DNA of 64,000 nt. Origin: Oscillospiraceae bacterium. GTDB taxonomy: Bacteria; Bacillota; Clostridia; Oscillospirales; Oscillospiraceae. The notes under the pieces were generated by a model. It saw only the letters and a list, made by a program, of their open reading frames with translations, searched no databases and had not been told where the DNA came from. Position numbers and translations under genes: made by a program. The DNA is taken from contig SVLI01000007.1 of assembly GCA_015068035.1 (NCBI GenBank), forward strand, positions 31,176 through 95,175, in the 5' to 3' direction. Shown here piece by piece: positions 1 through 29,482 of the stretch. The stretch's first letter is position 1. Each line of letters begins with the position of its first letter.

Positions 1-1
1 T

Positions 2-1522
2 GTGCGCAATCTTCACGCTGCGGACATTGCGGAAATGGGCAAGCCGGAGATTGCGCCCGATCCCGATGTTTTCGCGGACGAAGTGTTTTTGATGTCCTCA
101 AACTCCTCCAATCATCTCAAAGTTTGCGGCTACACCGGCGAGCGGTTTTACTGGCAGGTCTGCAACAGCGCGAAAATCCTGCAGATGGGCCGCTCCATCC
201 AGAAGCATTACGAGGGCAACCTGAAGCAACTGACGATTTTGCCGTTTTATCACATTTTCGGTCTGGCGGCCGTGTATCTCTGGTTCTGTTTCTTCTCCCG
301 GACGCTGGTTTTCCTTCGGGATCTCAACCCGAAGACCATACTCAGCACCGTGAAAAAGCATAAGGTTACGCATATTTTTGCCGTTCCCGTGCTTTGGGAA
401 CGCCTGTATCAGTCCGCGATGCGGGAGATCCGCTCGCGCGGCGAAAAAACTTACGGCAAGTTCACGCACGGCATGCACCTTGCCGAAAAACTTAACGCCG
501 TTCCCCCGCTCGGAAAGCTGTTTTCCAAACTTGCTTTCCGTGAGGTTCGGGACAACATTTTCGGGCCGAGTGTTCAGTGCATGATCAACGGCGGCGGCGC
601 CATCTCGGCTGAGGCGATGAAGTTTATCAACAGCATCGGCTACCATCTCGTAAACGGCTACGGTATGACGGAAATCGGCATCACCTCGGTGGAGCTCTCC
701 GAGAAAACGAAGCAGATAGTTCTGGGTTCTGTCGGCAAGCCTTTCTCCTCGGTTGAGTACAGTCTCAACGCCGAAAACGAGCTTCTGGTTCGCGGGAATT
801 GCCTTGCGAGCGAAATCTATCAGGACGGGGTCTGGCGCAAGCTGTCCGCAGATGAATGGTTCAACACGCAGGACCTGTTCACGGAGCGAAACGGCGATTA
901 TTACATTGACGGCCGGACAGACGATCTCATCGTCTGCAGCAACGGCGAAAATCTCAACCCCAATCTGGTTGAACCGCTTCTGACGGCGGACGGGATTGAG
1001 CAGGTCTGCCTGATCCCCGCGGAGAATGTCTCCGGCAAGGCGGTCCTTCTGTGCAAGGTCAAGCGTTTTGCAAACAGAGATGCTCTGCTTGCGGTGCGCA
1101 AGAATTTGACCGAGAAAATCCGCACGCTTCGTCTCGACGGCGTCATCAGCGGCATCGTGTTTACCTCCACTCCCCTGCTGGAAGCGGACGATTTCAAGCT
1201 CAACCGCAAGAAAATCCGCAGACGTTTTCAGGCCGGCGCATTCCGGCTGATCGACCTTAGCGAGGATTCGCGCGCAATGGAAGAGGAAGACCGGGAGCTG
1301 GCAAAGGAAGTGGCACAGATTCTTGCCGCAGCGCTGGACCGTTCTGCGGATGAGATCACCCCCGACACGGATTTCTTCCTTGATCTTGGCGGCAGCAGTC
1401 TGGACTACTTTGCTGCCATGACGAATATACAAAACGAATACGGCGTACCTTTCCTGGCAGCCGATGGAACGGGCGCTGCAACCGTGCGCGAGATCGTGAC
1501 TTACATCAAAGCCAACGCGTAA
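2..1522 (+). CDS. Long-chain fatty-acid adenylating enzyme (AMP-binding superfamily) with fused C-terminal carrier-protein domain; 5' end lies outside the window
   Basis: The ORF is open at the window edge. AMP-binding motifs GYGMTE and YYIDGRTDDLIV are present, with a terminal Lys region FKLNRKKIRR. These are followed by the carrier motif FFLDLGGSSLDYF, whose Ser is the phosphopantetheine site. Confidence 0.85.
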   Translation: MRNLHAADIAEMGKPEIAPDPDVFADEVFLMSSNSSNHLKVCGYTGERFYWQVCNSAKILQMGRSIQKHYEGNLKQLTILPFYHIFGLAAVYLWFCFFSRTLVFLRDLNPKTILSTVKKHKVTHIFAVPVLWERLYQSAMREIRSRGEKTYGKFTHGMHLAEKLNAVPPLGKLFSKLAFREVRDNIFGPSVQCMINGGGAISAEAMKFINSIGYHLVNGYGMTEIGITSVELSEKTKQIVLGSVGKPFSSVEYSLNAENELLVRGNCLASEIYQDGVWRKLSADEWFNTQDLFTERNGDYYIDGRTDDLIVCSNGENLNPNLVEPLLTADGIEQVCLIPAENVSGKAVLLCKVKRFANRDALLAVRKNLTEKIRTLRLDGVISGIVFTSTPLLEADDFKLNRKKIRRRFQAGAFRLIDLSEDSRAMEEEDRELAKEVAQILAAALDRSADEITPDTDFFLDLGGSSLDYFAAMTNIQNEYGVPFLAADGTGAATVREIVTYIKANA

Positions 1523-1589
1523 ATCCGATCTTCCAGAAGGGCAAAGCGGCTATGTATGATTTTTATATTGATCAGTGAGGATGAATAGA

Positions 1590-2552
1590 ATGGAAAAGAA
1601 ATTTGTTATTCTTTGCGACGGATCCTGCGACCTGACCCGCGAACTCCGCGAAAAATATGACATCGAGTATATGGCCGGAGTTTTTTCCTATCCCGACGGT
1701 TTTGAGGAGGTCGGTTTCCTCGATTGGGCCGATTGTCAGCATATCCCGAACTGCACTTCGGAAATTTTCTATGAGCAGCTCAAAAAGAATCCGACCGGCT
1801 TCAAAACCGCGCCGGTTTCCCCGCAGGCCTGCTACCGCGAGATTGAGAAATATGTCAAGCAGGGCTACGGTGTCATGACGCTGTCGCTTTCTCAGGCTCT
1901 TTCCGGCGCCTACAGTTTTGTTCTGATGGCGAAGCAGAATATTGAGAAGAATTACCCGGATGCGGAGGTTTACTGCATTGACTCCCGGCGCTACGCCTGC
2001 GCAATCGGCCTGCTGGCCATTCATGCCTCCATGCTCCGCAGCGAGGGCAAGAGTCTGAAGGAAACCGTGGATTACATCGAGGCGAACAAAATCCGCTTCC
2101 ACCAGGCCGGCTGGGTAGACGATCTTTCCTATCTGGCCAAGCAGGGCCGTCTGACCAACTCCAAGGCCTTTTTCGGCTCGCTGATCGGCCTTAAACCCAT
2201 CGGGGAGCTGGACAGCAACGGCCTGACAACGATTATCGCCAAAGTCAAGGGTGAAAAGCTGGCCTTCAAGGTTCTTCTGTCCTATATGGAACTGGTGGGT
2301 GAGGATCTGGGCAATCAGGTCATCGTCATCTCCCAGTCGAACCGGAGAAAGCAGGCCGAAATTTATAAGCGCATGATTGAAGAGCGCTTCCATCCGGAAG
2401 CCGTCTATATCAGCGATGTGTTCCCGCTCACCGGCGTGAACGTAGGCCCCGGCCTGATGGCGGCATATTTCATGGGCAAGCCCATAACCGAGGGTCTCGT
2501 CGCCGAAACCGAGGCCATCAACAAGGCGATTGAACTCAACTCCAAGGCGTAA
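1590..2552 (+). CDS. DegV family fatty-acid-binding protein (FakB-like)
   Basis: ORF 1575..2552. The ATG at 1590 lies 9 nt after GTGAGG. The N-terminal FVILCDGSCDL and a length of about 320 aa are typical of DegV. Confidence 0.85.
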   Translation: MEKKFVILCDGSCDLTRELREKYDIEYMAGVFSYPDGFEEVGFLDWADCQHIPNCTSEIFYEQLKKNPTGFKTAPVSPQACYREIEKYVKQGYGVMTLSLSQALSGAYSFVLMAKQNIEKNYPDAEVYCIDSRRYACAIGLLAIHASMLRSEGKSLKETVDYIEANKIRFHQAGWVDDLSYLAKQGRLTNSKAFFGSLIGLKPIGELDSNGLTTIIAKVKGEKLAFKVLLSYMELVGEDLGNQVIVISQSNRRKQAEIYKRMIEERFHPEAVYISDVFPLTGVNVGPGLMAAYFMGKPITEGLVAETEAINKAIELNSKA

Positions 2553-2610
2553 GCGAACATTTCAACAAACGCACAGTCGACCCCCTAAGATATATGCGAA
2601 GGTGATATTG

Positions 2611-3975
2611 ATGCGGATTATTCGATCAAAATGGAAACTGTTTTTTTACGGCATGGGCGCCATGGGCGTCAACATGCTCAACCTCATTGTCGGTTCCTAT
2701 CTTTGCGACGCGCTTATGACCGAGGGCTTCGCGCAGGAGATTGAATACTGGACCTATGCCAACACGACGCTGGTCGTGGCGGGAATTTGGTCTGTTCTGA
2801 TTGCGGTCTCCAAGATACTTGATGGCTTGATTGACATTCCGCTTGCATCTTTTGCGGACAACCTCAAATCGAAATGGGGCAGACGGCGGCCCGCCCTCCT
2901 AATTGGTCTGTTTCCGATGATCCTGGCTTACATCGGCTTTCTCAATCCCATCGCGGGGCCGGTCAAAAGCCTTGTCAACACCATTTGGTGCGGTGTGATG
3001 CTCTGCATTTTCTATTCGTTTTACACGCTTACCATGGGCACCTATTACGCCACGTTCTCCGAGATCGTGGATAATGACGGTGATCGTCTCTCCCTTTCCA
3101 ACTTCAAAACCGTTTTTGACATTGTTTACTACGTGATGGGTTATGCACTCATCCCGCTGATGATCTCTGCGCGCATCAACATCCGGATCGTCGGCTACAT
3201 TTTCCTGCCGCTGGTTCTGCTGATGCTCATCCCGATTTCCCTCATCAAAGAACCCTCGTCCCTGGACAAGGACCGCAATGATGCACAGAAAAAAGAAATT
3301 CATGTGGGCATGGTGCAGTCCTTCAAATACTGCATTGCCAACAAGTCTTTCGTGATTTGGATGGTAATTTACTGTTTCCTGCAGTTCGGCCTGCAAATTT
3401 ACATCACCGGTCAAAACGTATACTATTCCGGCATCATGAATCTTCAGGGTTTTCAGATGACGATTCTGATGGCATGTGTCTATGCGCCGGTTCCGTTCAC
3501 CCTGATTTTGTATAACCGCATCGTCCGAAAGCGCGGCCTGCGGACAGGTTATCTGTTTTCGCTTTCTGCTTTCACCATCGCCATGGTCTTCATGCTGATT
3601 TGCCGGGCCGATATTCTGAAAGACGTTACACTCCGGCTCGTCGTTGCCGCAATCGGATCGGTCATTTCATCCTTCGGCATCGGATGCTTTTTCTCCATCA
3701 ACTACACGGTCCCCTCTTCGCTCGCGGATGCAGAATATCGGCAAACCGGCATCACACATCCGACCATGTTCTTTGCCGTGCAGGGGCTGTCCTCCGCAAT
3801 CGCCACGGCGATCGCAACGGGACCTGTGTGGGTTAATCTGAAAGGTGCCGGACTGACATGGCTGCTGCCGGTTGTTGCCATTGCCGGAACTGCTGTGTCT
3901 TTCGGCCTTACGTTCCTGCTCCCGAAGGAACTCGGCATGATCGGAAAAACGCCGGACGAAGAAACCGCCGGATAA
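2611..3975 (+). CDS. MFS transporter, GPH/MFS_2 (MelB/Mfsd2a-like) family
   Basis: ORF 2530..3975. The internal ATG at 2611 (MRIIRSKWKLFFYGMGAMG) starts the hydrophobic core. The GPH-type loop LDGLIDIPLASFADNLKSKWGRRRPALL is present, and hydrophobicity suggests about 12 TM segments. Confidence 0.8.
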   Translation: MRIIRSKWKLFFYGMGAMGVNMLNLIVGSYLCDALMTEGFAQEIEYWTYANTTLVVAGIWSVLIAVSKILDGLIDIPLASFADNLKSKWGRRRPALLIGLFPMILAYIGFLNPIAGPVKSLVNTIWCGVMLCIFYSFYTLTMGTYYATFSEIVDNDGDRLSLSNFKTVFDIVYYVMGYALIPLMISARINIRIVGYIFLPLVLLMLIPISLIKEPSSLDKDRNDAQKKEIHVGMVQSFKYCIANKSFVIWMVIYCFLQFGLQIYITGQNVYYSGIMNLQGFQMTILMACVYAPVPFTLILYNRIVRKRGLRTGYLFSLSAFTIAMVFMLICRADILKDVTLRLVVAAIGSVISSFGIGCFFSINYTVPSSLADAEYRQTGITHPTMFFAVQGLSSAIATAIATGPVWVNLKGAGLTWLLPVVAIAGTAVSFGLTFLLPKELGMIGKTPDEETAG

Positions 3976-4008
3976 ACCACAAACAACTGCAAGGATACGA
4001 TTTGATTT

Positions 4009-5631
4009 ATGGAACATTTCTGCATTGACGGCATTGTTTTTGCGCAGATGCTTTGGAACGGACTGAAGAATCTGAAGCTCTGCGAAAGTGAGATCAACGA
4101 CATGAATGTGTTTCCCGTCCCGGACGGAGACACGGGCACAAACATGCGCAGCACGCTGGAATACGGCTTGCGGCAGGCGGAGCCTTGCCCGGAGTTGGGT
4201 GGCTACCTCGCTTCGTTTGAAAACAGTGTCCTTCTTGGCGCGCGCGGCAACTCGGGCGTCATCCTGTCCCAGATCTTCAAGGGCATCAGCTCGGCGCTCA
4301 CGGGCACGGCGGAAGCCGGAGCTTCGGAGTTTGCCGATGCCCTCACCCGCGCCTATAAAACCGCATACGATGCCGTCCTCAACCCGGTTGAAGGCACGAT
4401 TCTGACCGTCGTGCGCGAGAGTATTGAAAGCGCAAAAGCACAGATGCCATCCGACGCTTCTGTGGAGGAACTTCTGCGCCTGTATATCGCAGAGATGCAC
4501 GCTTCCCTGCTGCGCACCCCTGCCCTGCTGCCCGTTCTCAAAAGTGCAGGCCTTGTGGACAGCGGCGCGCTCGGCTATATCCGCATTCTTGAGGGCATGC
4601 TCATGTCGCTGCACGGGGAGATGCTCCAGCTGGATGAATCGTTTGAAACATCGGCGGTCGCGCCCCCCATTGACGACAGTTCCTTCACCGCCGACTCCTC
4701 GTTTGGCTACGGCTATTGCCTGGAATTTCTGCTCCAGCTGATGAATAACCGCACCGACGTGCAGAACTTTAACGTGGACGACTACACCGCCCGAATTACG
4801 CCTTTCGGCGATTCTTTGATCGTTACGCAGGTGAAGGACCGCATCAAGGTTCATATCCACACCTTCAAACCCGAACATGTTATGGAACTCAGCCGCAAAT
4901 ACGGAGAGTTTCTGACCTTTAAGCTTGACAATATGCAGCTGCAGCATAATGAATTCAGCGCTGCGAAGAAAGAACACAAGCCTTTGGCTCTTCTCGCCGT
5001 TGCGGATGGCGAAGGTTTTGCCGAGCTATTTGAGGGCCTGGGCTGTGATCTTGTTCTCATGGGCGGAAAAACCATGAGCGTGTCGGTCGGGGAATTCATC
5101 GAGGCCTATAAGTCACTGTCTGCCGATCGCATCCTGATCCTGCCGAATGACAAAAACATTGCCCGCACGGCAAAGCAGGCCGCGCAGATATACGGCGAAG
5201 AAACACTGGAATTTCTTGACACGGAAAACATGGTGCAGGGATATTTCTCCCTGGCCTCTGATATGCCTTGCGATGACATCGACGAGCGCATTGCCTGTCT
5301 GCGCCAGGGCTGCGACGGCGTGGATGTGATTGAGATCAGCCGCTCCACGCGTGATATTGTTTATAACGGCGTGGAGTGCCGCATCGGTCAGGTCGTCACG
5401 CTTATCAACGGAGATGTGAAGTTCTGTGGCGAAGATGTATTCGCCGCGGTTGAATCCGCACTGGAAAGCATGGACGCCAACGAGCGGGACACCGTGGTTG
5501 TCTTCACCGGTAAAGATTATGGGGACAACGATGCTTTGGAGGCCAGGCTTGTAGAGCAGTTCCCCGATGTGGAGCTCCTGCTGATTTACGGTGGGCAAAG
5601 CACCAGCGAACTGATAATCGGAGTGATCTGA
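4009..5631 (+). CDS. DAK2-domain protein, YloV/FakA-like (fatty-acid kinase ATP-binding subunit)
   Basis: 540 aa. The Dak2 nucleotide-binding motif FPVPDGDTGTNM is present. Length and three-part architecture match YloV/FakA. Confidence 0.8.
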   Translation: MEHFCIDGIVFAQMLWNGLKNLKLCESEINDMNVFPVPDGDTGTNMRSTLEYGLRQAEPCPELGGYLASFENSVLLGARGNSGVILSQIFKGISSALTGTAEAGASEFADALTRAYKTAYDAVLNPVEGTILTVVRESIESAKAQMPSDASVEELLRLYIAEMHASLLRTPALLPVLKSAGLVDSGALGYIRILEGMLMSLHGEMLQLDESFETSAVAPPIDDSSFTADSSFGYGYCLEFLLQLMNNRTDVQNFNVDDYTARITPFGDSLIVTQVKDRIKVHIHTFKPEHVMELSRKYGEFLTFKLDNMQLQHNEFSAAKKEHKPLALLAVADGEGFAELFEGLGCDLVLMGGKTMSVSVGEFIEAYKSLSADRILILPNDKNIARTAKQAAQIYGEETLEFLDTENMVQGYFSLASDMPCDDIDERIACLRQGCDGVDVIEISRSTRDIVYNGVECRIGQVVTLINGDVKFCGEDVFAAVESALESMDANERDTVVVFTGKDYGDNDALEARLVEQFPDVELLLIYGGQSTSELIIGVI

Positions 5632-5634
5632 ATC

Positions 5635-6618
5635 ATGGAAATCGTCTTATGGATCATCGTAGGCCTTCTGGCCGCGCCGCTGCTGTTCTATTTTTTCCCG
5701 ACATTTTTGGTGTCCGCCGTTTTGTATCGACGGACTTTGGTGCGCGAATCGGCAGAATCCTGGGGACGGGCCTGCAGCGAGCCGGAGGACGCCGAGACGA
5801 TGGATATGTTTCAGCGGGGCCTCGCCTGGCGGGATGCGCATATTTCTTTTAAGAAAGATGTACATATTGTCAGTGAGAAACTCAATCTTTGGGGCGAGTA
5901 TTTCGATTTTGGCTATGACAAGGCCGTGATCATCATCCCCGGGCGGATGGAAAGCTGCTTCTACTCCCTGTATTATGCAGCGCCGTACAGAGACGCCGGC
6001 TACAACGTGCTGACGATTGACAGCCGTGCGCACGGACTTTCTGACGGGAAGCGCAGCGGCATCGGACTTCGGGAATACCGTGACGTGATCGAATGGGGAA
6101 AATTCCTCACAGAAACACACGGCGTGAAAGAGATCGTGCTGCACGGCATGTGCATTGGTGCTGCCACGGCGCTCTATGCCCTGAATGCAGCGGATGTTCC
6201 CGAAAACTTCACGGCCATCATCGCAGACGGCATGTATTCCACCTTTGCTGAGTCCTACCGGCGGCATATCGTGGAGCGCGGACATCCGGCTTTTCCGTTC
6301 CTTTGGGAAGTTATGCTGATCGAGCGGATTCTGGTCGGTGTCGATGCGATGCACAACGGCCCGATGTACTGCATCGATCAACTCAAAAAACCGATCCTTT
6401 TCCTTTATACAAAAGAGGACAAATATGCATCTCCCGAAATTGCGGAGATGCTTTACGGCAAATGCGTCGCGCCGAAGAGACTTGTCTGGTTTGAAAAGGG
6501 CAAGCACTCGCGCATCCGCATCAATGCCGAGAAAGCATATGACGATGCCATAACGGCATTTCTTGCGGAAAAGGCTGTGCTGCAGCCGGAAACAGCCGCG
6601 GTGAATCCAGAAAGATAA
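5635..6618 (+). CDS. Alpha/beta-fold hydrolase with Cys in the nucleophile elbow; N-terminal TM anchor
   Basis: The elbow reads IVLHGMCIGAA (G-x-C-x-G, Cys173, codon 6151-6153). Candidate Asp (YTKEDKY) and His (EKGKHSR) follow. The N-terminus is hydrophobic (MEIVLWIIVGLLAAPLLFYFF). Confidence 0.75.
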   Translation: MEIVLWIIVGLLAAPLLFYFFPTFLVSAVLYRRTLVRESAESWGRACSEPEDAETMDMFQRGLAWRDAHISFKKDVHIVSEKLNLWGEYFDFGYDKAVIIIPGRMESCFYSLYYAAPYRDAGYNVLTIDSRAHGLSDGKRSGIGLREYRDVIEWGKFLTETHGVKEIVLHGMCIGAATALYALNAADVPENFTAIIADGMYSTFAESYRRHIVERGHPAFPFLWEVMLIERILVGVDAMHNGPMYCIDQLKKPILFLYTKEDKYASPEIAEMLYGKCVAPKRLVWFEKGKHSRIRINAEKAYDDAITAFLAEKAVLQPETAAVNPER

Positions 6619-6625
6619 GAGGCGT

Positions 6626-7561
6626 TTGACATTGCGAAAATCAAAAAAAGTCTACTCGGGGCTTGACAGTTTGCCGCACGGCATGGCATCGACCGAGATC
6701 ACGCCCGGTTGTGTGGCTTTGGAGGGCGGGGCACTGCGCGGCGTCTACACCTCCGGTGTGCTGGATGCCCTTATGGAAGCCGGCATTAACTTCCAGTGCA
6801 CAGTCGGCATTTCCGCAGGCGCACTCACCGGAATCAACTACGTCTCCGGTCAGATCGGCCGCAGCGCCGCGACAAGCCTGCGCTATGCGCGCGACACGAG
6901 ATTCATGGGGCCCAAGGCCTATCGACGCAACAAATGCATCGTCGGCTTTGATTACATCTACAACGAGATCAACAAGGCATACCCGCTCGATAAAAAACGT
7001 TTTTTTGACCCGGCGCGCCGTTTTGTTGCCGTTGCAACGAACTGCCGGACGGGCGAGCCCACATACTTTGACCGCGACACCTGTTCGGACATTTTTCAGG
7101 CCGTGAAGGCCTCCTCCTCCATCCCCTACGCCTCGAAGATGACTATGATCGACGGCGATCCCTATCTGGATGGCGGCTGCTCCGTCAAAGTTCCGTATGC
7201 CTGGGCGCTGGAGCAGGGCTATGAAAAAGTCGTCGTGATCCGCACGCTGACTGCGGACTATCGCAACCGCGTCACGCCCCGCATGTATACCGACAAGGTG
7301 CCGCTGCTGATGGGCCTGTTTTACAGGAAATATCCGGAGCTTCTCCGCAAGCTTATGGCTACCGAACCGCGTGGCAACGCAGAGTTTGAAGAGATGCAGC
7401 GTCTGCATGACGAAGGCCGGATCTTTATGATCTGCCCGTCCAGAGACCTTGGGTTCGACATGGTCATGCGGGATATGGAAAAGCTCGGCGCCATTTATTA
7501 TCTCGGCTATGAGGACGGAAAGGCCGCCATAGAGCCTTTGCGCGCCTACCTCGCCAAATGA
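6626..7561 (+). CDS. Patatin-like phospholipase
   Basis: Three patatin motifs are present: oxyanion GGALRG, nucleophile GISAGA, and catalytic Asp in YLDGG. The track start is TTG at 6626; an alternative ATG lies at 6683. Confidence 0.85.
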   Translation: MTLRKSKKVYSGLDSLPHGMASTEITPGCVALEGGALRGVYTSGVLDALMEAGINFQCTVGISAGALTGINYVSGQIGRSAATSLRYARDTRFMGPKAYRRNKCIVGFDYIYNEINKAYPLDKKRFFDPARRFVAVATNCRTGEPTYFDRDTCSDIFQAVKASSSIPYASKMTMIDGDPYLDGGCSVKVPYAWALEQGYEKVVVIRTLTADYRNRVTPRMYTDKVPLLMGLFYRKYPELLRKLMATEPRGNAEFEEMQRLHDEGRIFMICPSRDLGFDMVMRDMEKLGAIYYLGYEDGKAAIEPLRAYLAK

Positions 7562-7586
7562 GCAAATCCCCCTGTGAAGGGAGAGA

Positions 7587-8255
7587 ATGAGAATGAAATT
7601 TACCTTTCTCAGCAAGGCGTTTATGGCCTTCGTGCGCATAACCGGCCTTATTCCCTACGCGCTGTGTTTCAAAACGAAGGTTCACTGCGCGAACGGAAAC
7701 CGCGCGCTGCGTCATCCTAAGGGCAGCGCCATCATCATTTCCAACCACACCTCGGTGTTTGACTACGCGGTGCTGTTGTTTACCTATCCGCTGCGATACA
7801 TCCGCTGCCAGATCGCGGAGCTGATGTTCCGCAAGCCGGTGATCGGGCCTTTCCTGCGCGCGATGGGCGGCATCTACGTCAATCGGGACAGCTTTGATTT
7901 CTCTTTTGTGGAGGAATCGCTGGAGATTCTGGATAACGGCGGCGTTGTAGCCGTCTTTCCTGAGAGCCGCATCCCTTTGGCGGGCGAGGCACTGCCCCTG
8001 CCGTTTAAGCAGAGCCCCACGCTGATCGCCGCGCGCAGCCGCGCTCCCATCTATTTGATGTATACCGACGGCTGCTATTTCAAAAAAAAGCGGGCGCATG
8101 TCCTGCTGGACGGCCCGGTATATGTGCAGGATTTTTGGGACGATACGAAAAGCGAAAAAGAAAACCTCGCCTCGGTCACGGAATTGCTTCGGAAGAAGAT
8201 CGCAGAGATGGGGCAGGAACTTGAAAGCCTGAAAGCAAAGAAGAAGGAAAAGTGA
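7587..8255 (+). CDS. PlsC-type lysophospholipid/1-acylglycerol-3-phosphate acyltransferase
   Basis: The HX4D motif NHTSVFD is present, followed by a VAVFPESR block. A GAAGGGAGAG RBS region lies upstream. Confidence 0.8.
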   Translation: MRMKFTFLSKAFMAFVRITGLIPYALCFKTKVHCANGNRALRHPKGSAIIISNHTSVFDYAVLLFTYPLRYIRCQIAELMFRKPVIGPFLRAMGGIYVNRDSFDFSFVEESLEILDNGGVVAVFPESRIPLAGEALPLPFKQSPTLIAARSRAPIYLMYTDGCYFKKKRAHVLLDGPVYVQDFWDDTKSEKENLASVTELLRKKIAEMGQELESLKAKKKEK

Positions 8256-8264
8256 GCGCTGCAA

Positions 8265-8963
8265 ATGAATCCATGCAACACACAAAATGAAGAAAAAAAA
8301 GAAAAGAAGCTCCGCGCAAAGCTTCTGAGCCTCCGTTATTTGGTGTTGGACAGCGGCAGAGTGATTGCCGGTCCGTTTGTCCTGCTTTATTTCAGGCCGA
8401 AGTTTTACTATGAAAATGCGGCCGCCCGCAGGAAACTGCGCGGAAACGCGCTGGTCATTGCAAACCATCCCGGACAGTTTGACTGCGTGAAGCTCCTTGT
8501 CGCAGTCTGGTACAGGCGGCTGCACATAATCGCAACAAAAGATATCTTCGAGCGGAGCAAATTCGCCAACTGGTTCTACACGCAGTGCCAGTGCATCAAG
8601 GTGGACAAGGACAACTTCAACTATGACACCTTCCTCACCGTACAGGAGCGGCTTGCCGGCGGCTGTGTCGTGGGGCTGTTCCCGGAAGGACAGGTGAGCG
8701 CTTCGGACGAGGGTGTTTCCGCGTTCAAATCCGGCGTAACGCTTATGGCGATGAAAAGCGGCGCACCCGTTCAGCCCATTTTCATTGCAGAGCGTAAAAA
8801 CGTGTTCCAGCGGCTGCGCATCGCGGTTGGTGAACCGATTCACGTGGACGAGCTGAGCAAGGACAAGCCGGCCATGCTTGCGATTCAGGAAGCCACGCAG
8901 AAAATCCGTGAAAAAGAACTGGAGCTTAAACAATTGATAGATACAGAAAGGCAGGAAAGATAA
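8265..8963 (+). CDS. PlsC-type acyltransferase (second paralogue)
   Basis: The HX4D motif NHPGQFD and the block GLFPEGQ are present. Confidence 0.8.
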   Translation: MNPCNTQNEEKKEKKLRAKLLSLRYLVLDSGRVIAGPFVLLYFRPKFYYENAAARRKLRGNALVIANHPGQFDCVKLLVAVWYRRLHIIATKDIFERSKFANWFYTQCQCIKVDKDNFNYDTFLTVQERLAGGCVVGLFPEGQVSASDEGVSAFKSGVTLMAMKSGAPVQPIFIAERKNVFQRLRIAVGEPIHVDELSKDKPAMLAIQEATQKIREKELELKQLIDTERQER

Positions 8964-8964
8964 C

Positions 8965-10455
8965 ATGTACGACAAGTTCAAAGATTACACCGAGCCGGAG
9001 AATTTCGCCAAGATTGTCGATTACGGCACAGTCGGCGAAATGTGGGCTTATGTATCCAAGCAGTTCGCGCAGAACACCGCCATCGTATACGGCGAGAAAA
9101 CCTACACTTTCGCCGAGCTTGACAGCGACGTTGCGCATTACAGAGCCTTTCTGCTCTCCCAGGGCGTTAAGAAGGGCGACTGTGTCGGCATGCTGCTGCC
9201 GAACAGCTACGCCTTTGCCAAGGTCTTTCTTGCGCTGACAACGCTGGGCGCCGTGGCCGCCGTTCTGCCGCCGCAGCTTCCGGCGGAGGCCGTATTTGGC
9301 TGCGCGATGAAGTTTGGCATGAAAGGGCTGGTATATGCGCCCGGCCTCGCGGAAAAAACCGCGGTACTGCAGAAGATGAATCCGTCCTGCCTGCTGCTGG
9401 ACAGCGACGCCGCCTTTGACGGCACCGCGCCGGCCGGCGAAGTGCTGCCCAAAGATCCCTGCGCGATCATGTTCACGGGCGGCACCTCCGGCAAGAGCAA
9501 GGGCGCGCTGCTCTCGCATCAGGCCGTGATGGCCGGCACGCGCAACGGCTGCTACGGCGTCAACCCCGCGTTTGAACAGCGCTACGTCCTCGTTCTGCCG
9601 CTGTCCCACGTTTTCGGCCTCATCCGCAATCTGATGACCTCGCTGTACTCCGGCAGCGGCCTGTTCATCTGCCAGGATACGAAGGACATGTTCCGCGACA
9701 TCGCCATGTTCAAGCCGACCATTATGGTCCTTGTTCCCGCGCTGGCCGAGATGGCGCTCACCCTCTCCAAGCAGTTCGGACGGAACATGCTGGGTGACGA
9801 CCTGAAATACATCATCTGCGGCGCCGCGCCGGTTCCGCAGTACCTCGTGCGGGAATACCACGCCATGGGCGTACAGATGGCGCCCGGCTACGGCCTCACG
9901 GAGAGCGCCAACCTCGTCAGCGGCAACCCGGATGCGATGGGACATCCGGACTCCGTCGGCATCCCCTATGCCGGCCAGGAGATCAAGTTCGTCGACGGCG
10001 AAATCTGGCTTAAGGGCATCAACATGATGGAAAGCTATGTCGGCGAGCCGGAGGAGAACGCTGAGGCGTATGAGGACGGCTGGTTCAAGACCGGTGACCT
10101 CGGCCGTCTGGACGAGGACGGCTTCCTCTACATCACCGGCCGCAAAAAGGCAATTCTCGTGCTTCCCTCCGGCGAGAACGTCTCCCCGGAGGAGGTTGAG
10201 GCCTGCTTCAACGCCATTGATCTGGTGCAGGACAGCCTCGTGTACTGCGATGAGAACGGCGCGCTGGTTCTGGAGGTTGTGCCGAGAAGAACAGAGATGG
10301 CCAAGGTCGAGGGTGACGCCGGAAAGCTTCTGCAGGAGCAGATCGCCCAGGCAAACAGCACGCTTCCGTCAATCAAGCGCGTCAGCCGCGTTGTGATTCG
10401 CGAGGAAGACTTCAAGCGCAGCCCGAGCATGAAGATTTTGAGGGATCAGAAATGA
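8965..10455 (+). CDS. Acyl-CoA/acyl-ACP synthetase (AMP-binding)
   Basis: Motifs FTGGTSGKSKGALLSH, GYGLTE and GWFKTGDLGRLDEDGFLYITGRKK are present. The gene starts 1 nt after the preceding stop. Confidence 0.88.
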   Translation: MYDKFKDYTEPENFAKIVDYGTVGEMWAYVSKQFAQNTAIVYGEKTYTFAELDSDVAHYRAFLLSQGVKKGDCVGMLLPNSYAFAKVFLALTTLGAVAAVLPPQLPAEAVFGCAMKFGMKGLVYAPGLAEKTAVLQKMNPSCLLLDSDAAFDGTAPAGEVLPKDPCAIMFTGGTSGKSKGALLSHQAVMAGTRNGCYGVNPAFEQRYVLVLPLSHVFGLIRNLMTSLYSGSGLFICQDTKDMFRDIAMFKPTIMVLVPALAEMALTLSKQFGRNMLGDDLKYIICGAAPVPQYLVREYHAMGVQMAPGYGLTESANLVSGNPDAMGHPDSVGIPYAGQEIKFVDGEIWLKGINMMESYVGEPEENAEAYEDGWFKTGDLGRLDEDGFLYITGRKKAILVLPSGENVSPEEVEACFNAIDLVQDSLVYCDENGALVLEVVPRRTEMAKVEGDAGKLLQEQIAQANSTLPSIKRVSRVVIREEDFKRSPSMKILRDQK

Positions 10456-10706
10456 GCAGAGAAGAAATTTTTGAAAAGCTGAAATACATTCTGAAGTACA
10501 CGCTTTCGAACGCGGACGAGATTTTGCCCATCGTCACGGAGGACTCGGATTTATACGTGGATCTCGGCCTGACTTCAGTCGGTATGCTGTATATCGTCAT
10601 CTCCGTTGAGGAGATGTTCAAAATTTCCATGAGTAATGCCAAATTTGACGATTTCAAAACCGTCAAAAACGTCATTGACTATCTGGAGAAGAAGATCAAT
10701 CTATGA
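10452..10706 (+). CDS. Acyl carrier protein (stand-alone)
   Basis: 84 aa and acidic. The motif DLGLTSVGML places Ser at the canonical phosphopantetheine position. ATGA overlaps occur at both ends. Confidence 0.8.
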   Translation: MSREEIFEKLKYILKYTLSNADEILPIVTEDSDLYVDLGLTSVGMLYIVISVEEMFKISMSNAKFDDFKTVKNVIDYLEKKINL

Positions 10707-11749
10707 AATGGCTTATGAAGGACCCGAAGCCGGGCGATATTCTTCGGGTTGAAAGCGGAATTTTCATGCACTTCGGCATCTATGTGTCTGACGAGGAGAT
10801 CATCCAGTTCGGCATGCCCCCCACCTCCCTTGAAGACCTGCAGGGGAAGGACATCCGCATTTGCGTATCCGACATTGATGCGTTCTGCCGCGGTGCGTTT
10901 GTGGAGGTCGCTTCCCTGAGCTTTCAGGAGAAAAAGAAGGCACGCAAGCCGGCGGATGTCATCGCCTATGCGCGCTCGAAGATCGGCATGGGCGGATATG
11001 ACATCCTGGAAAACAACTGCGAGCACTTTGTAAACGACTGTGTTTTCGGCAAAAAGTTCAGCGAACAGGTCGACAAGGTCAAGCGCAACACTTTCCGGCG
11101 CATCCCGTATATTGACCTGTACATTTCGGAAATTCCCGCTTCTCTCCCTCCCTGCCCGCTGTTCCCGCCCGAACGGCAGGCAGAGCTGGACGCCTGCGGC
11201 AACGAAAACGTCCGCAGGCAGAGGCAATACGCCTGGCAGGTTTTGCGCTTCGCGCTGAAAAAAACCTGCAGCATCGACATGCGGGAAAGCGACATTCATA
11301 AAACGGAGAGCGGTAAGTGGATCTGCTCTGACGCCTGCTTCTCCCTCTCCCACTCTCCCAATTTCGTTGCGGTCGCTGTGGCGAAAATGCCTGTCGGCGT
11401 TGATATTGAGGAGCTGCCGGATTTGCGCATGGAGGAAAGGCTCTATGAGCGCATCGCAACAGAAGGGGAGCTTTCTTCGCTTGGAGCTGCTCCCTCCCGG
11501 GAGGACGTTGCGCGCCTGTGGACGCTCAAAGAGAGCGTTTTTAAGCGCATCGGCACGGGACATTTTTCTCCCTGCAGCATCAACACACTGACGGAATCCG
11601 CCCGCTGCTTTCGGGACAATGCCTTTGATGGGCTGATGATCGCCGTTTCCGCCGAGTCGCTCGAGTGCATAAACGTCTATCACCTCAGTCCCGAAACGGA
11701 GGCGTGCGCGGACTTTACGCTCACGCCGGCTTCCGTTACGACGGCCTGA
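10703..11749 (+). CDS. Fusion protein: N-terminal LRAT/PLAAT (NlpC/P60-like) thiol acyltransferase domain plus C-terminal Sfp-type 4'-phosphopantetheinyl transferase
   Basis: The N-terminal part has His23 in MHFGIYV and NCEHFVNDC (Cys106, codon 11018-11020). The C-terminal part has SLSHSPNFVAVAV, VGVDIEE and WTLKESVFK, which are PPTase motifs. Confidence 0.8.
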   Translation: MKWLMKDPKPGDILRVESGIFMHFGIYVSDEEIIQFGMPPTSLEDLQGKDIRICVSDIDAFCRGAFVEVASLSFQEKKKARKPADVIAYARSKIGMGGYDILENNCEHFVNDCVFGKKFSEQVDKVKRNTFRRIPYIDLYISEIPASLPPCPLFPPERQAELDACGNENVRRQRQYAWQVLRFALKKTCSIDMRESDIHKTESGKWICSDACFSLSHSPNFVAVAVAKMPVGVDIEELPDLRMEERLYERIATEGELSSLGAAPSREDVARLWTLKESVFKRIGTGHFSPCSINTLTESARCFRDNAFDGLMIAVSAESLECINVYHLSPETEACADFTLTPASVTTA

Positions 11750-11765
11750 AAAATGCTGTAAATGC

Positions 11766-11803
11766 AAAAAACTGTTGCAGGGAAACTCCTGCAACAGTTT
11801 TTT
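11766..11803. terminator. Bidirectional intrinsic terminator closing the lipid operon and the convergent gene
   Basis: An 11-bp perfect stem (actgttgcagg / cctgcaacagt) carries a 6-nt loop. It is flanked by an A5 run and a T6 run. Confidence 0.85.
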
Positions 11804-11823: not shown

Positions 11824-12354
11824 TTAATATGCGAACGCCGCGGCAATAATGATAACAATCCAATAGAAGATCATGCAGATGGACGCAATCAGTCCGACGA
11901 TCGACGTGATCCTGCCGACCCTCGCAAAAGCTGTCGTAAAGCCAAAGGTAACAGCTCTTTCCTTTGCGGAGCCGGACTTCTTCATGCCGATGATCGCCAA
12001 AACAAAGCCGGCCACGACGGTCCAGCACGTGCACAGGGAAAGGATGCCGAGAATCATTGCGGTGATGCCCAGCTTTCTGGAATCGTCCACCTGCGCCGTG
12101 TAAACAGGCTGCTGTACGTAAACGGGCTGCTGCGCATACTGCTGCTGCACGGGCGGCTGCACATAAACCGGCTGCTGATACTGCGGCTGCGCGGGCTGCT
12201 GGGTGTACTGCTGCTGTGTATAGACGGGCTGCTGATACTGCTGCTGGTAGACAGGCTGCTCATAAACAGGCGGCTGCACGGGCTGCTGTTCGTAGACAGG
12301 CTGCTGTGCAGACTCGACCGTTTCGTTCAGATTGTTCTGCTCGTTCATGTTCAT
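11824..12354 (-). CDS. Membrane protein with Q/P/Y-rich repeat N-terminus and DUF4190-like C-terminal TM pair
   Basis: The N-terminal roughly 70 aa are degenerate QQPVY repeats. The C-terminal part has 2-3 hydrophobic helices (ITAMILGILSLC..., IVGLIASICMIFYWIVIIIAAAF). Confidence 0.7.
   Translation of the reverse strand: MNMNEQNNLNETVESAQQPVYEQQPVQPPVYEQPVYQQQYQQPVYTQQQYTQQPAQPQYQQPVYVQPPVQQQYAQQPVYVQQPVYTAQVDDSRKLGITAMILGILSLCTCWTVVAGFVLAIIGMKKSGSAKERAVTFGFTTAFARVGRITSIVGLIASICMIFYWIVIIIAAAFAY
12094..12306 (-). repeat. Degenerate tandem codon repeat encoding (Q-Q-P-V-Y)n
   Basis: The plus strand shows reiterated ctgctg / gtagac / gtaaac units. Translation gives QQPVYEQQPVQPPVYEQPVYQQQYQQPVYTQQQY... 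Confidence 0.75.
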
Positions 12355-12472: not shown

Positions 12473-13531
12473 ATGCCGAAAAGGTTCAAAAAACTGGTCA
12501 TTATGATTGCCGCCGCGGTGCTGCTTTTCGCGTTTGTGATTCCGGAGGCTGCGGCCATTGTTGTCTACAATTCCATATTCGGCGACCGCTACGAGCCCTA
12601 TGCCCCGCTGATGTTTCACATGGAGGATTTCCCCGGTCTGGAGCGCACGCGCTACAGCTTCCCCTCGGACAGAGGGCAGACGCTGGTCGGCTATCTTTTC
12701 CGCCGCGGCGCGGAGAAGCCCAAGGGCGTCGTCGTGATCTGCCACGGTCTTGGCGGCGGTGGACAGATTGACTATCTGGACTGCGCAAACTGCTTTGCCG
12801 AGAACGGATACTGGGTCTTCGCCTATGACGGAACGGGCAACGGCGAGAGCGAGGGCAAGGACGTGCGCGGTCTGCCGCAGGCTGTGATTGACCTTGACTA
12901 CGCGATTTCCTTTGTCAAGGAGACCTTTTCCGATCTGCCTGTCATGCTGTTCGGGCACAGCTGGGGCGGTTACGCGGCGGCAAGCGTGCTGCAATATCAC
13001 CCGGATGTGAAGGCGGTTGCCTCGGTCGCGGGCATGAACTGCTCAGCCGATCTGATGCGTGTCTACGGGAAAGAGGCCGCCGGCTTCTTTGCGGACATCT
13101 CCATGCCGTACGTAGATTTGTATGAACGCCTGAAATTTGGGAAATACGCTTCCGCCGCCGCTCTGGACGGCTTTGAAGCCTCCGACGCGGCCGTGCTCAT
13201 CGTGCACAGCGAGGACGATGCCCGGGTTCCAATCTCCATCGGCTATGAGCTCTACTATGAACAGTATGCCGACTCCGAGCGCTTCCGCTTCATCCGCTAC
13301 ACGGACCGCGGACACGGCTACGTGTATGCTTCGCAGCACGCAGTGGATTATCTTGATGATTTCTATGCGGGACTGGAGGCCTGCGAGGAAAACGAAAAGA
13401 ACGCATATGTCGCCCAAAACCTGGATTGGACGCTATGGACGAACCGTTTGGACGCCGAACTGTTCTCCGAAATCGTCAGCCTGTACGACAGTACGCTGGA
13501 GTCTGTTCCAAATCAGGACAAATCCGCATAA
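12473..13531 (+). CDS. Membrane-anchored alpha/beta hydrolase
   Basis: ORF 12332..13531. The internal ATG at 12473 (MPKRFKKLVIMIAAAVLLFAF) gives a signal/anchor. The nucleophile elbow is GHSWGG. Confidence 0.8.
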   Translation: MPKRFKKLVIMIAAAVLLFAFVIPEAAAIVVYNSIFGDRYEPYAPLMFHMEDFPGLERTRYSFPSDRGQTLVGYLFRRGAEKPKGVVVICHGLGGGGQIDYLDCANCFAENGYWVFAYDGTGNGESEGKDVRGLPQAVIDLDYAISFVKETFSDLPVMLFGHSWGGYAAASVLQYHPDVKAVASVAGMNCSADLMRVYGKEAAGFFADISMPYVDLYERLKFGKYASAAALDGFEASDAAVLIVHSEDDARVPISIGYELYYEQYADSERFRFIRYTDRGHGYVYASQHAVDYLDDFYAGLEACEENEKNAYVAQNLDWTLWTNRLDAELFSEIVSLYDSTLESVPNQDKSA

Positions 13532-13687: not shown

Positions 13688-15076
13688 ATGAAGTATTTTA
13701 AGTATGGCTCCCCCGCCCCGATCGCATATGCCGACTTCATGGCAAAGAACAAGGTTCCCCCTGTTGAGAAACTCAACATCTGCCACGAAAGCATCGTTCC
13801 GGACATGATGAACGTCTGGTACGAATACATTCCCGCATCCTATGATGGAAATACGCCTCTGCCGCTGATCGTGCAGCTTCACGGCGGCGGTATGGACGGC
13901 AGACGTTGGGCCGATATGACAGTCTGGCATGTGCTGGCTGAGCGCAAGGGACTGATCGTGATTTATCCCAACTCACCGGACTACGGCACCTGGCGCTGCG
14001 ACGACCGCGATGTGGAATTTCTCTATCAGCTCATCGCACTCGTCTGCGAAAAATACAGCATCGACAAAACCCGGATCTACATGCAGGGCATGTCCAATGG
14101 TGACATGATGACGCTTGCCTTCACCATGCAGCACCCGGAGATCTTGGCTGCCGCAGGATACTCCACCGGCCCCTCCGCACACATGTATGTGGATGACGAG
14201 CGCCCGGTCGGTGCCCTGCCCGCCATCCAGATGCGCGGCGAGCTTGACCTCCTCTCCCAGCAAACGGAGGCCGAGCCACTCGATAAATATGAGATCCGCT
14301 ACAACATCAACGACTTTAACCGCGAACTCTGGCAGGATGTGAACGAACTGGACGAGCTTCCGCTTCTGACGCTGCGCGGGAAGGACAACTTCATGCGCTT
14401 CAAAGGCGAGACGGCCGACCTCATCAACTGGGAGATCGTGGGCTGCGGCCACAGAGAACCCGCCGACATGGCGCAGGTTTACTGGGACACACTGTATTCC
14501 GGATACATCCGCGTGGATGGGCAGCTTGTGCGCAGAGACTTTGAGGATCCGCTCACGCCCGACGAAGACCTCGTTGCCATCGCGCTCGGCAGCCGCAATG
14601 CCTTTGTTGGCAACAAGGTCGTGCAGATGACGGAGCTTGACTCCGGTGTTGTGCGTCTCCTTGACCCGACCATGAGCATGTATAAAAAAGTGGTCGACCC
14701 CAACGAAATGATGGAAACCCCTGCGCTTTTTGCTCCGGTGGAATTCTTCGTGGCCGCCTTCGGCGCCAAACTCAGCTATCTTGATTCCGGCGACTGTGCT
14801 GTTGTGGAATTCCCGGATGGGAATGTTGCGATCTTCCGGTCCGACTCCCTTCTGGTTGAATACAACGGACGCTTCCGCTCCATGCGCAAGCCGAGTGTTC
14901 TTCTGGGGGGCAACTTCTATATCCCCGTGGGTGAATTCTGCGCGGACTTTATGAACATGTTTGTGTCCCAGGCGGCAGATGTCATGCTGATCTCCGGCCA
15001 CGCCGCCATCTTGGGCCGCTACACCGCCAGAGTGCTGCGCAGAATCCTCGGTGGTTACGTCCGCGCCATTGAATAG
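13688..15076 (+). CDS. PHB-depolymerase-family (LpqC-like) esterase fused to a C-terminal copper-amine-oxidase-N-like 'stalk' domain
   Basis: The esterase half has LIVQLHGGG and the nucleophile elbow QGMSNGDMM. The ATG at 13688 lies 8 nt after AAGGAG. No signal peptide is evident. Confidence 0.7.
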   Translation: MKYFKYGSPAPIAYADFMAKNKVPPVEKLNICHESIVPDMMNVWYEYIPASYDGNTPLPLIVQLHGGGMDGRRWADMTVWHVLAERKGLIVIYPNSPDYGTWRCDDRDVEFLYQLIALVCEKYSIDKTRIYMQGMSNGDMMTLAFTMQHPEILAAAGYSTGPSAHMYVDDERPVGALPAIQMRGELDLLSQQTEAEPLDKYEIRYNINDFNRELWQDVNELDELPLLTLRGKDNFMRFKGETADLINWEIVGCGHREPADMAQVYWDTLYSGYIRVDGQLVRRDFEDPLTPDEDLVAIALGSRNAFVGNKVVQMTELDSGVVRLLDPTMSMYKKVVDPNEMMETPALFAPVEFFVAAFGAKLSYLDSGDCAVVEFPDGNVAIFRSDSLLVEYNGRFRSMRKPSVLLGGNFYIPVGEFCADFMNMFVSQAADVMLISGHAAILGRYTARVLRRILGGYVRAIE

Positions 15077-19079: not shown

Positions 19080-19130
19080 GTAAGCAGGCAAAGTAATGTT
19101 CCCGTAAAAATAATGACAGAGGTGTTGCAG

Positions 19131-20888: not shown

Positions 20889-20923
20889 GTTTTCCGGCTT
20901 TTGGTGCGTATTTCAGCAAAAAC

Positions 20924-20965
20924 AAGCCGGAAGCCCCGGGATCGGAGCTTCCGGCTTAGCTTTTC
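20924..20965 (+). terminator. Intrinsic terminator
   Basis: An 11-bp stem (aagccggaagc / gcttccggctt) is followed by agcttttc. Confidence 0.7.
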
Positions 20966-21103
20966 TCCGCACTGCTTTTTTGCATAGATCATGTGTGCGT
21001 TTTTCACATTTTTTGCAGCGCAAATTTTACAAACGCTTTTTGCTGCGATGTGGTAAAATTATATTTATACCGCACATCCGAAAAGAATAAATGAGGTAAA
21101 GCA

Positions 21104-22051: not shown

Positions 22052-22118
22052 GGCGCGCGCCGTCAAAATATTGATAAGTAAAATAATAATATAACAGGAT
22101 CAGAAAGGAGAGTCCCTT

Positions 22119-29420: not shown

Positions 29421-29482
29421 CCATTACGGCGAGAGTTTTCCCTCTGTAATGCACAAAGTAATAATCAACTTAGGAGTTTCTC

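Follow-up and report, generated by a model that had tools for sequence, protein, structure and literature searches.

An eleven-gene operon of an Oscillospiraceae bacterium as a candidate system for the salvage and re-acylation of exogenous lipids

A conserved lipid gene cluster in gut and rumen Firmicutes

Eleven open reading frames (ORFs), all co-directional on the + strand and designated g1 to g11 here, occupy the first 11.8 kb of a 64,000-nucleotide stretch of DNA from an uncultured Oscillospiraceae bacterium of gut or rumen (assembly GCA_015068035.1, contig SVLI01000007.1, positions 31,176 to 95,175; in the following, the window). They encode an adenylase fused to a carrier domain (g1), a DegV protein (g2), an MFS_2 transporter (g3), a FakA-like kinase subunit (g4), an alpha/beta hydrolase (g5), a patatin-like protein (g6), two PlsC-family acyltransferases (g7 and g8), a second adenylase (g9), an acyl carrier protein (ACP; g10) and an LRAT domain fused to a phosphopantetheinyl transferase (PPTase; g11). 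A Pfam analysis of the proteins recovered every domain that had been named for the eleven genes in a preliminary description of this DNA. We put the probability at roughly 55% that the block encodes a salvage and re-acylation system, which takes up fatty acids or lysolipids from outside the cell and builds their acyl chains into membrane lipid. The cluster occurs widely and is coherent in its make-up. All of its parts belong to familiar families. The FakAB-type kinase and the PLAAT/LRAT-type domain appear in a new context. Neither the cluster nor an LRAT-PPTase protein was described in anything that our full-text literature searches brought up, and the preliminary description, too, knew of no characterised operon of such composition.

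One genome per species was scanned with the LRAT domain as a seed, which revealed at least 565 genome stretches encoding a relative. The best 80 of these were fetched, and all are described as coming from uncultured Firmicutes or metagenome-assembled genomes (MAGs) of Firmicutes from gut or rumen. The eleven proteins were then mapped onto 82 LRAT-seeded loci (individual loci are given as L numbers below) by tblastn and at the ORF level. A module consisting of the adenylase-ACP fusion, PlsC and ACP genes adjoined the LRAT gene in 75 of the 82 loci. FakA and DegV were additionally present in 42 loci, a lower bound as many contigs end early. Where at least 8 kb were available on either side of the LRAT gene (31 loci), the acyl module was always found and was accompanied by the Fak module in 22 cases. 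The commonest gene order was g1-(long MFS_2)-g7-g8-(g9)-g10-LRAT(+/-PPTase)-Ser hydrolase-DegV-(MFS_2)-FakA-Cys hydrolase. The order in the window is a permutation thereof, with the Fak block placed between g1 and g7.

A second search, seeded with homologs of the transporter instead of the LRAT domain, gave independent confirmation of the linkage. The cluster is spread over several Clostridia families and Bacilli/Mollicutes-like MAGs, the latter including an acyl-module locus from a Mollicutes-like MAG (L045). A Bacilli MAG (L092) contains the co-directional string MFS_2-DegV-FakA-PlsX-PPTase-adenylase/ACP-fused double PlsC-ACP, and L093 the string MFS_2-FakA-adenylase/ACP-fused double PlsC-LRAT. 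A Ruminococcaceae contig (L087) carries a minimal set only, namely MFS_2-PlsC-PlsC-ligase-ACP-LRAT/PPTase. The neighbourhoods seeded on the LRAT gene bear out the conservation that the preliminary description had left to be checked: whether in permuted, fused or split form, the genes are found together again in other Firmicutes of the gut and rumen. Because the two PlsC enzymes are fused in some lineages, the LRAT and PPTase domains occur fused or separated and the modules are repeatedly joined in one string, we conclude that these genes work together. This supports the view that the eleven genes form one functional unit.

Spacing and boundaries of the operon

Spacing and synteny together suggest that the eleven genes form an operon. 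The gaps amount to 67 nt between g1 and g2, 33 nt between g3 and g4, 3 nt between g4 and g5, 7-13 nt between g5 and g6, 25-31 nt between g6 and g7, 9 nt between g7 and g8 and 1 nt between g8 and g9. Both the g9-g10 and the g10-g11 junction are 4-nt ATGA overlaps (10452-10455 and 10703-10706). The 1-nt gap and the two overlaps had been reported before and were seen again. The gap between g2 and g3 is 58 nt if g3 starts at position 2611 and 100 nt if it starts at 2653, and all non-overlapping gaps measure 1-67 nt provided that the former start is used. The start at 2611 agrees with a homolog of 454 aa from an NCBI source (P0269; 97% identity over 100% of the query); the start at 2653 corresponds to the 440-aa product of a metagenome gene call.

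The operon ends at a bidirectional intrinsic terminator (11766-11803), whose stem of 17 pairs lies between A6 and T6 and which matches the strong terminator previously placed at 11771-11798. All other terminator-like matches were stems of 5-10 pairs, and those on the + strand inside the block comprised just 5-6 pairs. The total of 16 such matches compares with 14.4 +/- 4.1 in shuffled sequences and corresponds to chance. The short stems within the block are in line with the earlier description, in which no internal terminator was found. Internal promoters and terminators were rejected as candidate features, as their consensus matches occurred at chance frequency. Two promoter-like sites, recognised by their consensus only, are located in the 225-nt region upstream of g1. 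Neither the operon nor its upstream region contained a riboswitch or other known RNA, as nothing in Rfam matched the 21-kb locus at E<=1.

The first gene is truncated in the window (1-1522, ORF 2-1522, + strand) and complete on L001 (7918-9933). Longer contigs of the same locus were found by an exact-sequence look-up of the DegV protein. On one of them (ERZ27248446 k141_712329, 157 kb), the full g1 encodes a protein of 671 aa, and its start lies 493 nt beyond the left edge of the window. It is preceded by the 225-nt intergenic region and then by divergent genes for DUF8180, CooC and acetyl-CoA synthase/carbon monoxide dehydrogenase (ACS/CODH). As the complete g1 and these divergent Wood-Ljungdahl genes bound the left side, the operon comprises exactly eleven genes. 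The extension to the left that had been considered possible was not found, with only divergent genes lying beyond g1. Likewise, the left flank on the longer contigs ruled out a non-ribosomal peptide synthetase/polyketide synthase (NRPS/PKS) or teichoic-acid pathway hidden upstream of the window, which had been named as a possible explanation for the carrier proteins. Condensation and ketosynthase domains were absent from the operon, the 10 kb upstream of it and the other Pfam-annotated neighbourhoods.

The region directly to the left of the window (L001 1-7692) encodes on the opposite strand RACo, acetyl-CoA synthase/CODH (CdhC), CdhD, pterin-binding subunits, CooC and DUF8180. From this divergent Wood-Ljungdahl gene set the source organism looks acetogen-like. 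Source databases assign the proteins of the locus to uncultured Oscillospiraceae/Ruminococcaceae MAGs.

Predicted functions of the encoded proteins

Catalytic motifs are intact in g5, g6, g7, g8 and g11. The protein encoded by g1 contains Pfam AMP-binding and PP-binding domains. Among 67 orthologs, the carrier Ser631, the GYGxTE motif, K564 and R567 are invariant. The P-loop of the window copy (residues 196-206) reads SSNSSNHLK compared to a family consensus of SSGTSxxVK. The g1 protein is a divergent adenylase. The second adenylase, g9 (8965-10455, + strand; AMP-binding, 207 bits), is a putative fatty-acid adenylase and the presumed ligase for the carrier g10, with which it shares one of the 4-nt overlaps. 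Its top matches are fatty-acid CoA ligases such as FadD13, and the list also includes aryl-acid and malonyl CoA ligases. No DltA model is among its listed best matches. A Dlt-like D-alanylation function of the g9/g10 pair was ruled out by these family matches, in which g9 is unlike DltA, and by the lack of an MBOAT (DltB) or DltD gene. The free-standing ACP encoded by g10 (10452-10706, + strand) has a PP-binding domain and matches ACP models below their cut-offs; it was found in 68 of the 82 loci.

The two acyltransferases g7 (7587-8255, + strand; PF01553, motifs NHTSVFD and FPE) and g8 (8265-8963, + strand; PF01553, motifs NHPGQFD and FPEG) match, again below cut-offs, the PlsC domain of the Aas-type acyl-ACP--phospholipid acyltransferase models PRK08633 and PRK06814. 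In most loci without the long MFS_2 gene, g7 comes directly after g1. The fused double PlsC of L092 and L093 combines a g7-type and a g8-type domain in one protein of about 420 aa.

The last gene, g11 (10703-11749, + strand; Pfam LRAT and ACPS), encodes an LRAT/PLAAT-type Cys enzyme fused to an Sfp-type PPTase, with H23 and the motifs NCEHF, GVDIE and WTLKESVFK. Across 29 sequences, H23, N104-F109 (NCEHF), GxDxE and WxxKExxxK are invariant, as are the PPTase residues G232, D234, E236, W273, E277 and K281. Matches in the PDB were obtained to PLAAT3 (E 6.5e-8) and Sfp (E 7.7e-6). A word-indexed search yielded 104 clusters of LRAT-PPTase relatives and an exhaustive search 129 representatives at E<=1e-30, most of the best-scoring of which match over both domains. 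By these sequence criteria the fusion is a family of its own. The N-terminal 130 residues align to PLAAT3 and PLAAT4 and thereby resemble the PLAAT/HRASLS/LRAT enzymes, whose catalytic His and Cys (within NCEHF) are invariant here. In contrast to these enzymes, g11 lacks the C-terminal membrane anchor, and the domain has a PPTase and an ACP as fusion partner or gene neighbours. No hydrophobic segment was detected in g11, and the C-terminus consists of the PPTase domain or, in stand-alone forms, of a basic tail. Since the LRAT domain is always encoded beside an ACP and fused to or near a PPTase, it may handle a carrier thioester. This suggests that its partner is a carrier thioester rather than, or besides, phospholipid. 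To our knowledge, this type of substrate is not known for the LRAT family.

A stand-alone LRAT domain was observed in 31 loci, in some of which a separate PPTase is encoded nearby. Loci of this kind (type L050-L085) add a DegV-DegV-FakA-PlsX string, a GT2 glycosyltransferase, two transmembrane (TM) hydrolases and a DUF2953-like membrane protein. In six of them an Sfp-type PPTase is encoded by a gene of its own, and a polysaccharide deacetylase with DUF3473 is present in some.

The transporter g3 (2611-3975, + strand, with the alternative start at 2653) belongs to the MFS_2 (GPH) family. In a comparison of its family profile with the PDB, MFSD2A was the best match (E 3.5e-4) and MelB scored 0.037. 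An AlphaFold2 model (pLDDT 85.6) was searched with Foldseek, in which MFSD2A ranked first (E 1.3e-10, TM-score up to 0.74) and MelB second (4.3e-10). By profile and predicted fold, g3 therefore appears marginally closest to MFSD2A, a sodium-dependent lysophosphatidylcholine symporter, although identity between the two is only 12-15%. D71 and D75 of the DGxxDxP motif are invariant in the g3 family, and we take this Asp pair to be the place where a symporter binds its cation.

Loci of the type L008-L062 (e.g. L010 5049-6956 and L087 5137-6978) encode, between g1 and g7, a second MFS_2 subtype with a length of about 630 aa. It has three additional C-terminal membrane helices, which the 450-aa subtype of the Fak module does not possess.

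The DegV/FakB-type fatty-acid-binding protein g2 (1590-2552, + strand; Pfam DegV, 162.7 bits) scores above the cut-off of the NCBIfam DegV model, and its PDB matches include structures of FakB1, FakB2 and FakB3. By this similarity it is a genuine FakB-fold protein. Of the residues that bind the carboxylate in FakB (Ser of LSGxY, Arg of GGR and His of GxHxGPG), it contains the Ser and Arg motifs (SQALSGAY and QGRLT) and has Asn in place of the His. The FakA-like kinase subunit g4 (4009-5631, + strand) contains the Pfam domains Dak2, FakA-like_M and FakA-like_C and reaches 475 bits with the NCBIfam YloV model (cut-off 396). With the equivalog model for the S. aureus-type FakA it scores 336 against a cut-off of 975, and as this is far below the cut-off, g4 is not a close FakA ortholog.

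Hydrolases of the operon and its conserved neighbours

The alpha/beta hydrolase g5 (5635-6618, + strand) has a single membrane-helix anchor and a Cys nucleophile in an HGMCIG elbow. C173 (HGxCIG), D262 and H291 are invariant in 30 sequences, and the Cys elbow HGxCxG is retained in 42 of the 44 g5 orthologs of the loci. The gene accompanies FakA even in the Bacilli locus. By this conservation, the Cys hydrolase is a core component of the cluster. Its AlphaFold2 model (pLDDT 89) has an N-terminal helix at residues 2-35, and the nearest folds are the archaeal Pf2001 esterase and monoacylglycerol lipase; the phospholipase A PlaF appears at rank 50. According to a simple positive-inside charge rule, applied to ORFs with uncertain start codons, the catalytic domain is predicted to be cytoplasmic in 36 of 40 g5 orthologs.

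The patatin-like phospholipase g6 (6626-7561, + strand; Pfam Patatin, 72.8 bits, and DUF6363; motifs GGALRG, GISAG and DGG) is specific to this lineage and has no predicted TM helix. An ortholog in the cluster was found in none of the 82 LRAT-seeded loci, and the sole weak match (29% identity, L033) lies upstream on the opposite strand. Patatin was therefore rejected as a core component. Instead, 32 of the 82 loci contain a Ser alpha/beta hydrolase (YGxSMG) in the cluster, which is predicted to be cytoplasmic in 22 of 33 cases, and in one further lineage a non-orthologous patatin has been placed independently beside MFS_2-FakA. This suggests that some acyl-ester hydrolase is required at this point of the pathway. 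The preliminary description had listed the patatin as a part of the system and had proposed that the operon strips acyl chains from foreign phospholipid. As a part of the system, the patatin did not hold up across lineages. As g6 lacks a helix and the Cys hydrolase is predicted to be cytoplasmic, the two enzymes are unlikely to strip lipid outside the cell.

A better candidate for this activity is encoded downstream. A TM-anchored Ser alpha/beta hydrolase (12473-13531, + strand; Pfam Hydrolase_4, Abhydrolase_1 and Peptidase_S9), which forms its own transcription unit, is 31-34% identical to a hydrolase family (U00) present in 37 of the 82 loci. Among the 34 members of this family with a TM helix, 30 have more Lys and Arg residues on the N-terminal side, which predicts an extracellular catalytic domain. 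Between the operon and this gene, a Gln/Pro/Tyr-rich small membrane protein with three C-terminal hydrophobic segments is encoded (11824-12354, - strand). It is related by BLASTP (E down to 3e-13) to a zinc-ribbon/DUF4190-type membrane protein family (U01) that recurs beside the cluster in 38 loci. Both genes are located just beyond the block that had been delimited before, and are part of the conserved neighbourhood.

Further downstream follow an Esterase_PHB-like protein and two ABC exporter genes (ABC_membrane and ABC_tran; 13688-15076 and 15128-18813). The Esterase_PHB-like protein also shows a weak match, under the Pfam cut-off, to the N-terminal domain of copper amine oxidase. The exporter pair was found near the cluster in just a few loci.

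Proposed pathway and alternative interpretations

In the proposed salvage and re-acylation system, outward-facing esterases encoded near the operon, with the hydrolase at 12473-13531 as the main candidate, would release fatty acids and lysolipids. The cation-coupled transporter g3 would import an amphiphile, for which a lysolipid is our best guess. Acyl chains may be taken off at the cytoplasmic face by g5, the Cys hydrolase, and by the patatin g6 or, in other lineages, the Ser hydrolase. Free fatty acid would be bound by the DegV protein g2 and phosphorylated to acyl-phosphate by the FakA-like subunit g4. In parallel, g1 would charge its own fused carrier with fatty acid and g9 the ACP g10. 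The PlsC-type enzymes g7 and g8 could then transfer the carrier-bound acyl groups to an acceptor, either a lysolipid or a glycerol-phosphate. The PPTase half of g11 is predicted to convert both carriers into the holo form, and the LRAT half might act on the carrier thioester via its Cys, either clearing misloaded carriers or handing the acyl group on. Whereas the domains, motifs and gene linkage were observed directly, each substrate and each reaction of this scheme is our inference.

The set composed of FakA/FakB, PlsX, ACP and ACP synthase is retained for lipid synthesis by JCVI-syn3A, which does not make fatty acids itself (PMC6609329). The cluster matches this set with FakA/FakB, PlsX or a ligase, ACP, PPTase and PlsC, which we count in favour of a salvage function. 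PlsX is located inside the gene string of L092 and adjoins FakA in 17 loci. Near the cluster, g9 without PlsX was detected in 48 loci, PlsX without g9 in 17 and both in 0 of 82 (Fisher p 1.4e-8, uncorrected for phylogeny), as would be expected of alternative means of loading the same free-standing ACP. The conserved linkage of the genes, the Aas-type matches of g7 and g8, the marginal closeness of g3 to MFSD2A, the FakB fold of g2, the YloV score of g4 and the invariant triad of g5 with its PlaF-like build of one helix plus hydrolase domain also speak for salvage. The statement in the preliminary description that the operon encodes every step needed went too far, as PlsY and PlsX are not part of it; the salvage interpretation itself was partly supported.

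Several observations weigh against the proposed function. MelB, a sugar carrier, nearly equals MFSD2A in its similarity to g3. The His of the GxHxGPG motif in aligned FakB/DegV structures is replaced by Asn in g2, and nearly all DegV proteins of the cluster (L007-L088) have in its place either Asn, as in close orthologs, or Ser, as in a second type of DegV protein. In FakB this His presumably contacts the fatty-acid carboxylate. Given its replacement, the ligand of the cluster DegVs may differ from a plain fatty acid; alternatively, they may simply form a variant subfamily. The operon contains neither PlsX nor PlsY to follow on the proposed acyl-phosphate step. The window copy of g1 has Asn at the first P-loop Gly, which is unusual and was seen in 3 of 67 orthologs. 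Pathways for specialised lipids or natural products, too, typically have carriers and a PPTase of their own, and the related loci include a GT2 glycosyltransferase in 18 and a polysaccharide deacetylase in 9 cases. Finally, the mutual exclusion of g9 and PlsX largely reflects two architecture types and is confounded by lineage.

A more far-reaching version of the salvage hypothesis may be speculated upon, which we consider rather doubtful. Many uncultured gut Firmicutes may be without the type II pathway of fatty-acid synthesis (FASII), its ACP and its ACP synthase and rely on lipid from the diet or the host, with the cluster as the main or only acyl-chain supply for membrane phospholipid. The cluster would then stand in with its own carrier, PPTase, ligases and kinase and would cover both glycerol-phosphate acyltransferase steps, while the LRAT domain would act on the carrier thioester. 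No FASII genes were found in the window or in the annotated neighbourhoods, which cover a small part of each genome. If true, this would explain why all organisms seen here are uncultured, and the cluster would represent a Gram-positive counterpart of LplT-Aas.

Among the alternatives, the one that survives best, though it seems unlikely to us, is a Lands cycle of the bacterial cell. The patatin or Ser hydrolase, the Cys hydrolase and LRAT, as phospholipases that face the cytoplasm, would deacylate the cell's own phospholipids and the carrier-dependent PlsC enzymes would re-acylate them, either to adjust membrane composition or for repair after damage by bile, free fatty acids or foreign phospholipases. 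The predicted cytoplasmic orientation of g5 and the Ser hydrolase and the missing membrane helix of the patatin are in line with such a cycle, and enzymes of the LRAT/PLAAT family, to which the PDB matches of g11 point, take phospholipid as acyl donor. LplT-Aas of E. coli, too, functions in repair (PMC11416262). Among the fold neighbours of g5 is PlaF of Pseudomonas aeruginosa, a phospholipase A with a membrane anchor for which a role in a bacterial Lands cycle has been proposed (PMC9132575). In PlaF, a single N-terminal membrane helix precedes the alpha/beta hydrolase domain as in g5. However, PlaF has only rank 50 among the fold matches, and the nucleophile of g5 is Cys, not Ser. Moreover, the importer-type, cation-coupled MFS_2 protein and the fatty-acid kinase are conserved, which points to uptake, and a hydrolase predicted to face outward is a conserved neighbour. 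The Lands cycle and salvage of exogenous lipids overlap and both may hold.

Even less probable, in our view, is that the block serves to assemble a single specialised acylated lipid (for instance a glycolipid with acyl chains, the anchor of lipoteichoic acid or an N-acyl lipid), with private carriers delivering particular acyl groups and the kinase supplying precursors only. The two dedicated carriers, the two adenylases and the dedicated Sfp-type PPTase would suit such a pathway, as would the three acyl-transfer enzymes in the block, the unusual binding motif of the cluster DegVs and the glycosyltransferase and deacetylase of some related loci. The latter two are, however, missing from this operon and from most loci, and no ketosynthase, condensation or thioesterase domain is encoded in any Pfam-annotated neighbourhood. 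The position of PlsX in the L092 string and beside FakA in the 17 loci ties the carrier to ordinary phospholipid chemistry, and the spread over Clostridia families and Bacilli/Mollicutes-like MAGs is more typical of core physiology. A coincidental adjacency of unrelated lipid genes is highly improbable: although co-transcription in the window is indicated by spacing only, two of the junctions are 4-nt overlaps and the occurrence of the same families together in dozens of species, whether permuted, fused or split, contradicts it.

Comparison with known lipid systems

The parallels to aas-lplT and FakA/FakB that had been drawn in the preliminary description are backed by family and profile evidence. 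LplT-Aas of E. coli is the nearest known system in function. In both cases the gene for an MFS transporter adjoins those for a PlsC-type acyltransferase and an acyl-ACP synthetase, and the acyl group is, or in the cluster would be, passed on via a carrier protein. The HX4D-type PlsC enzymes (NHTSVFD in g7, NHPGQFD in g8) are encoded near the AMP-binding proteins g9 and g1, and L087 shows the bare MFS-PlsC-PlsC-ligase-ACP arrangement. However, Aas is one polypeptide using the housekeeping ACP, whereas in the cluster the parts are encoded by separate genes, an adenylase is fused to one of the private carriers, and the PPTase is private as well. It furthermore encodes two PlsC enzymes, and the LRAT domain, the Cys hydrolase and FakAB are added. 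As a single Aas polypeptide is absent and the transporter is of the MFS_2/GPH type and lies outside the LplT family, the cluster would work alike but is not a member of this system. LplT-Aas has been identified in Gram-negative bacteria only, according to a study from 2024 (PMC11416262).

The FakA/FakB-PlsX/PlsY/PlsC route of S. aureus and the Mollicutes, including JCVI-syn3A, resembles the cluster in the three FakA domains of g4 and the FakB fold of g2, and related loci carry the string DegV-DegV-FakA-PlsX. In mycoplasmas, fakA is located upstream of plsX (PMC6609329). The operon differs from this route in that PlsX and PlsY are absent, the DegV protein lacks the His of GxHxGPG, and the kinase is set among adenylases, carriers, hydrolases and a transporter. 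It also differs from NRPS/PKS clusters, as no condensation or ketosynthase domains accompany its carriers.

How strict anaerobes of gut and rumen handle dietary and host lipid is poorly understood, and lysolipid uptake followed by re-acylation is documented only in Gram-negative bacteria. The cluster offers concrete, clonable candidate genes for this process in uncultured Firmicutes. It also raises the questions whether an LRAT-type Cys enzyme works with an acyl carrier protein, which role is played by the conserved Cys-nucleophile alpha/beta hydrolase that always accompanies FakA, and whether a bacterial MFSD2A-like carrier acts as lysolipid importer. If organisms with the cluster need fatty acids from outside, this would provide a hint for culturing them and have a bearing on resistance to FASII inhibitors.

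Other features of the window

The remainder of the window is housekeeping DNA and includes the genes pyrH-frr-uppS-cdsA-dxr-rseP-ispG-polC. In a separate unit at 19113-24548, a UGSC-domain protein (PF24696) is encoded together with a glycyl-radical activating enzyme (21104-22051) and, at 22119-24548, a PFL-like glycyl radical enzyme; a similar pair of activase and glycyl radical enzyme is found near the cluster in L087. The region from about 29400 to 32000 contains very small ORFs, among them a 56-aa fragment of a serine recombinase (30881-31051, - strand), and looks like a decayed mobile element. At 44608-46682 (- strand), adjacent genes encode proteins with Ni_insertion (LarC-like) and AIRC (LarB-like) domains, which suggests synthesis of a nickel cofactor of the lactate-racemase type. 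A protein with SLH, SH3 and GDSL-lipase domains (49954-51435, - strand) is probably a cell-wall-anchored extracellular esterase or lipase and could act as a source of free fatty acids for the proposed salvage system.

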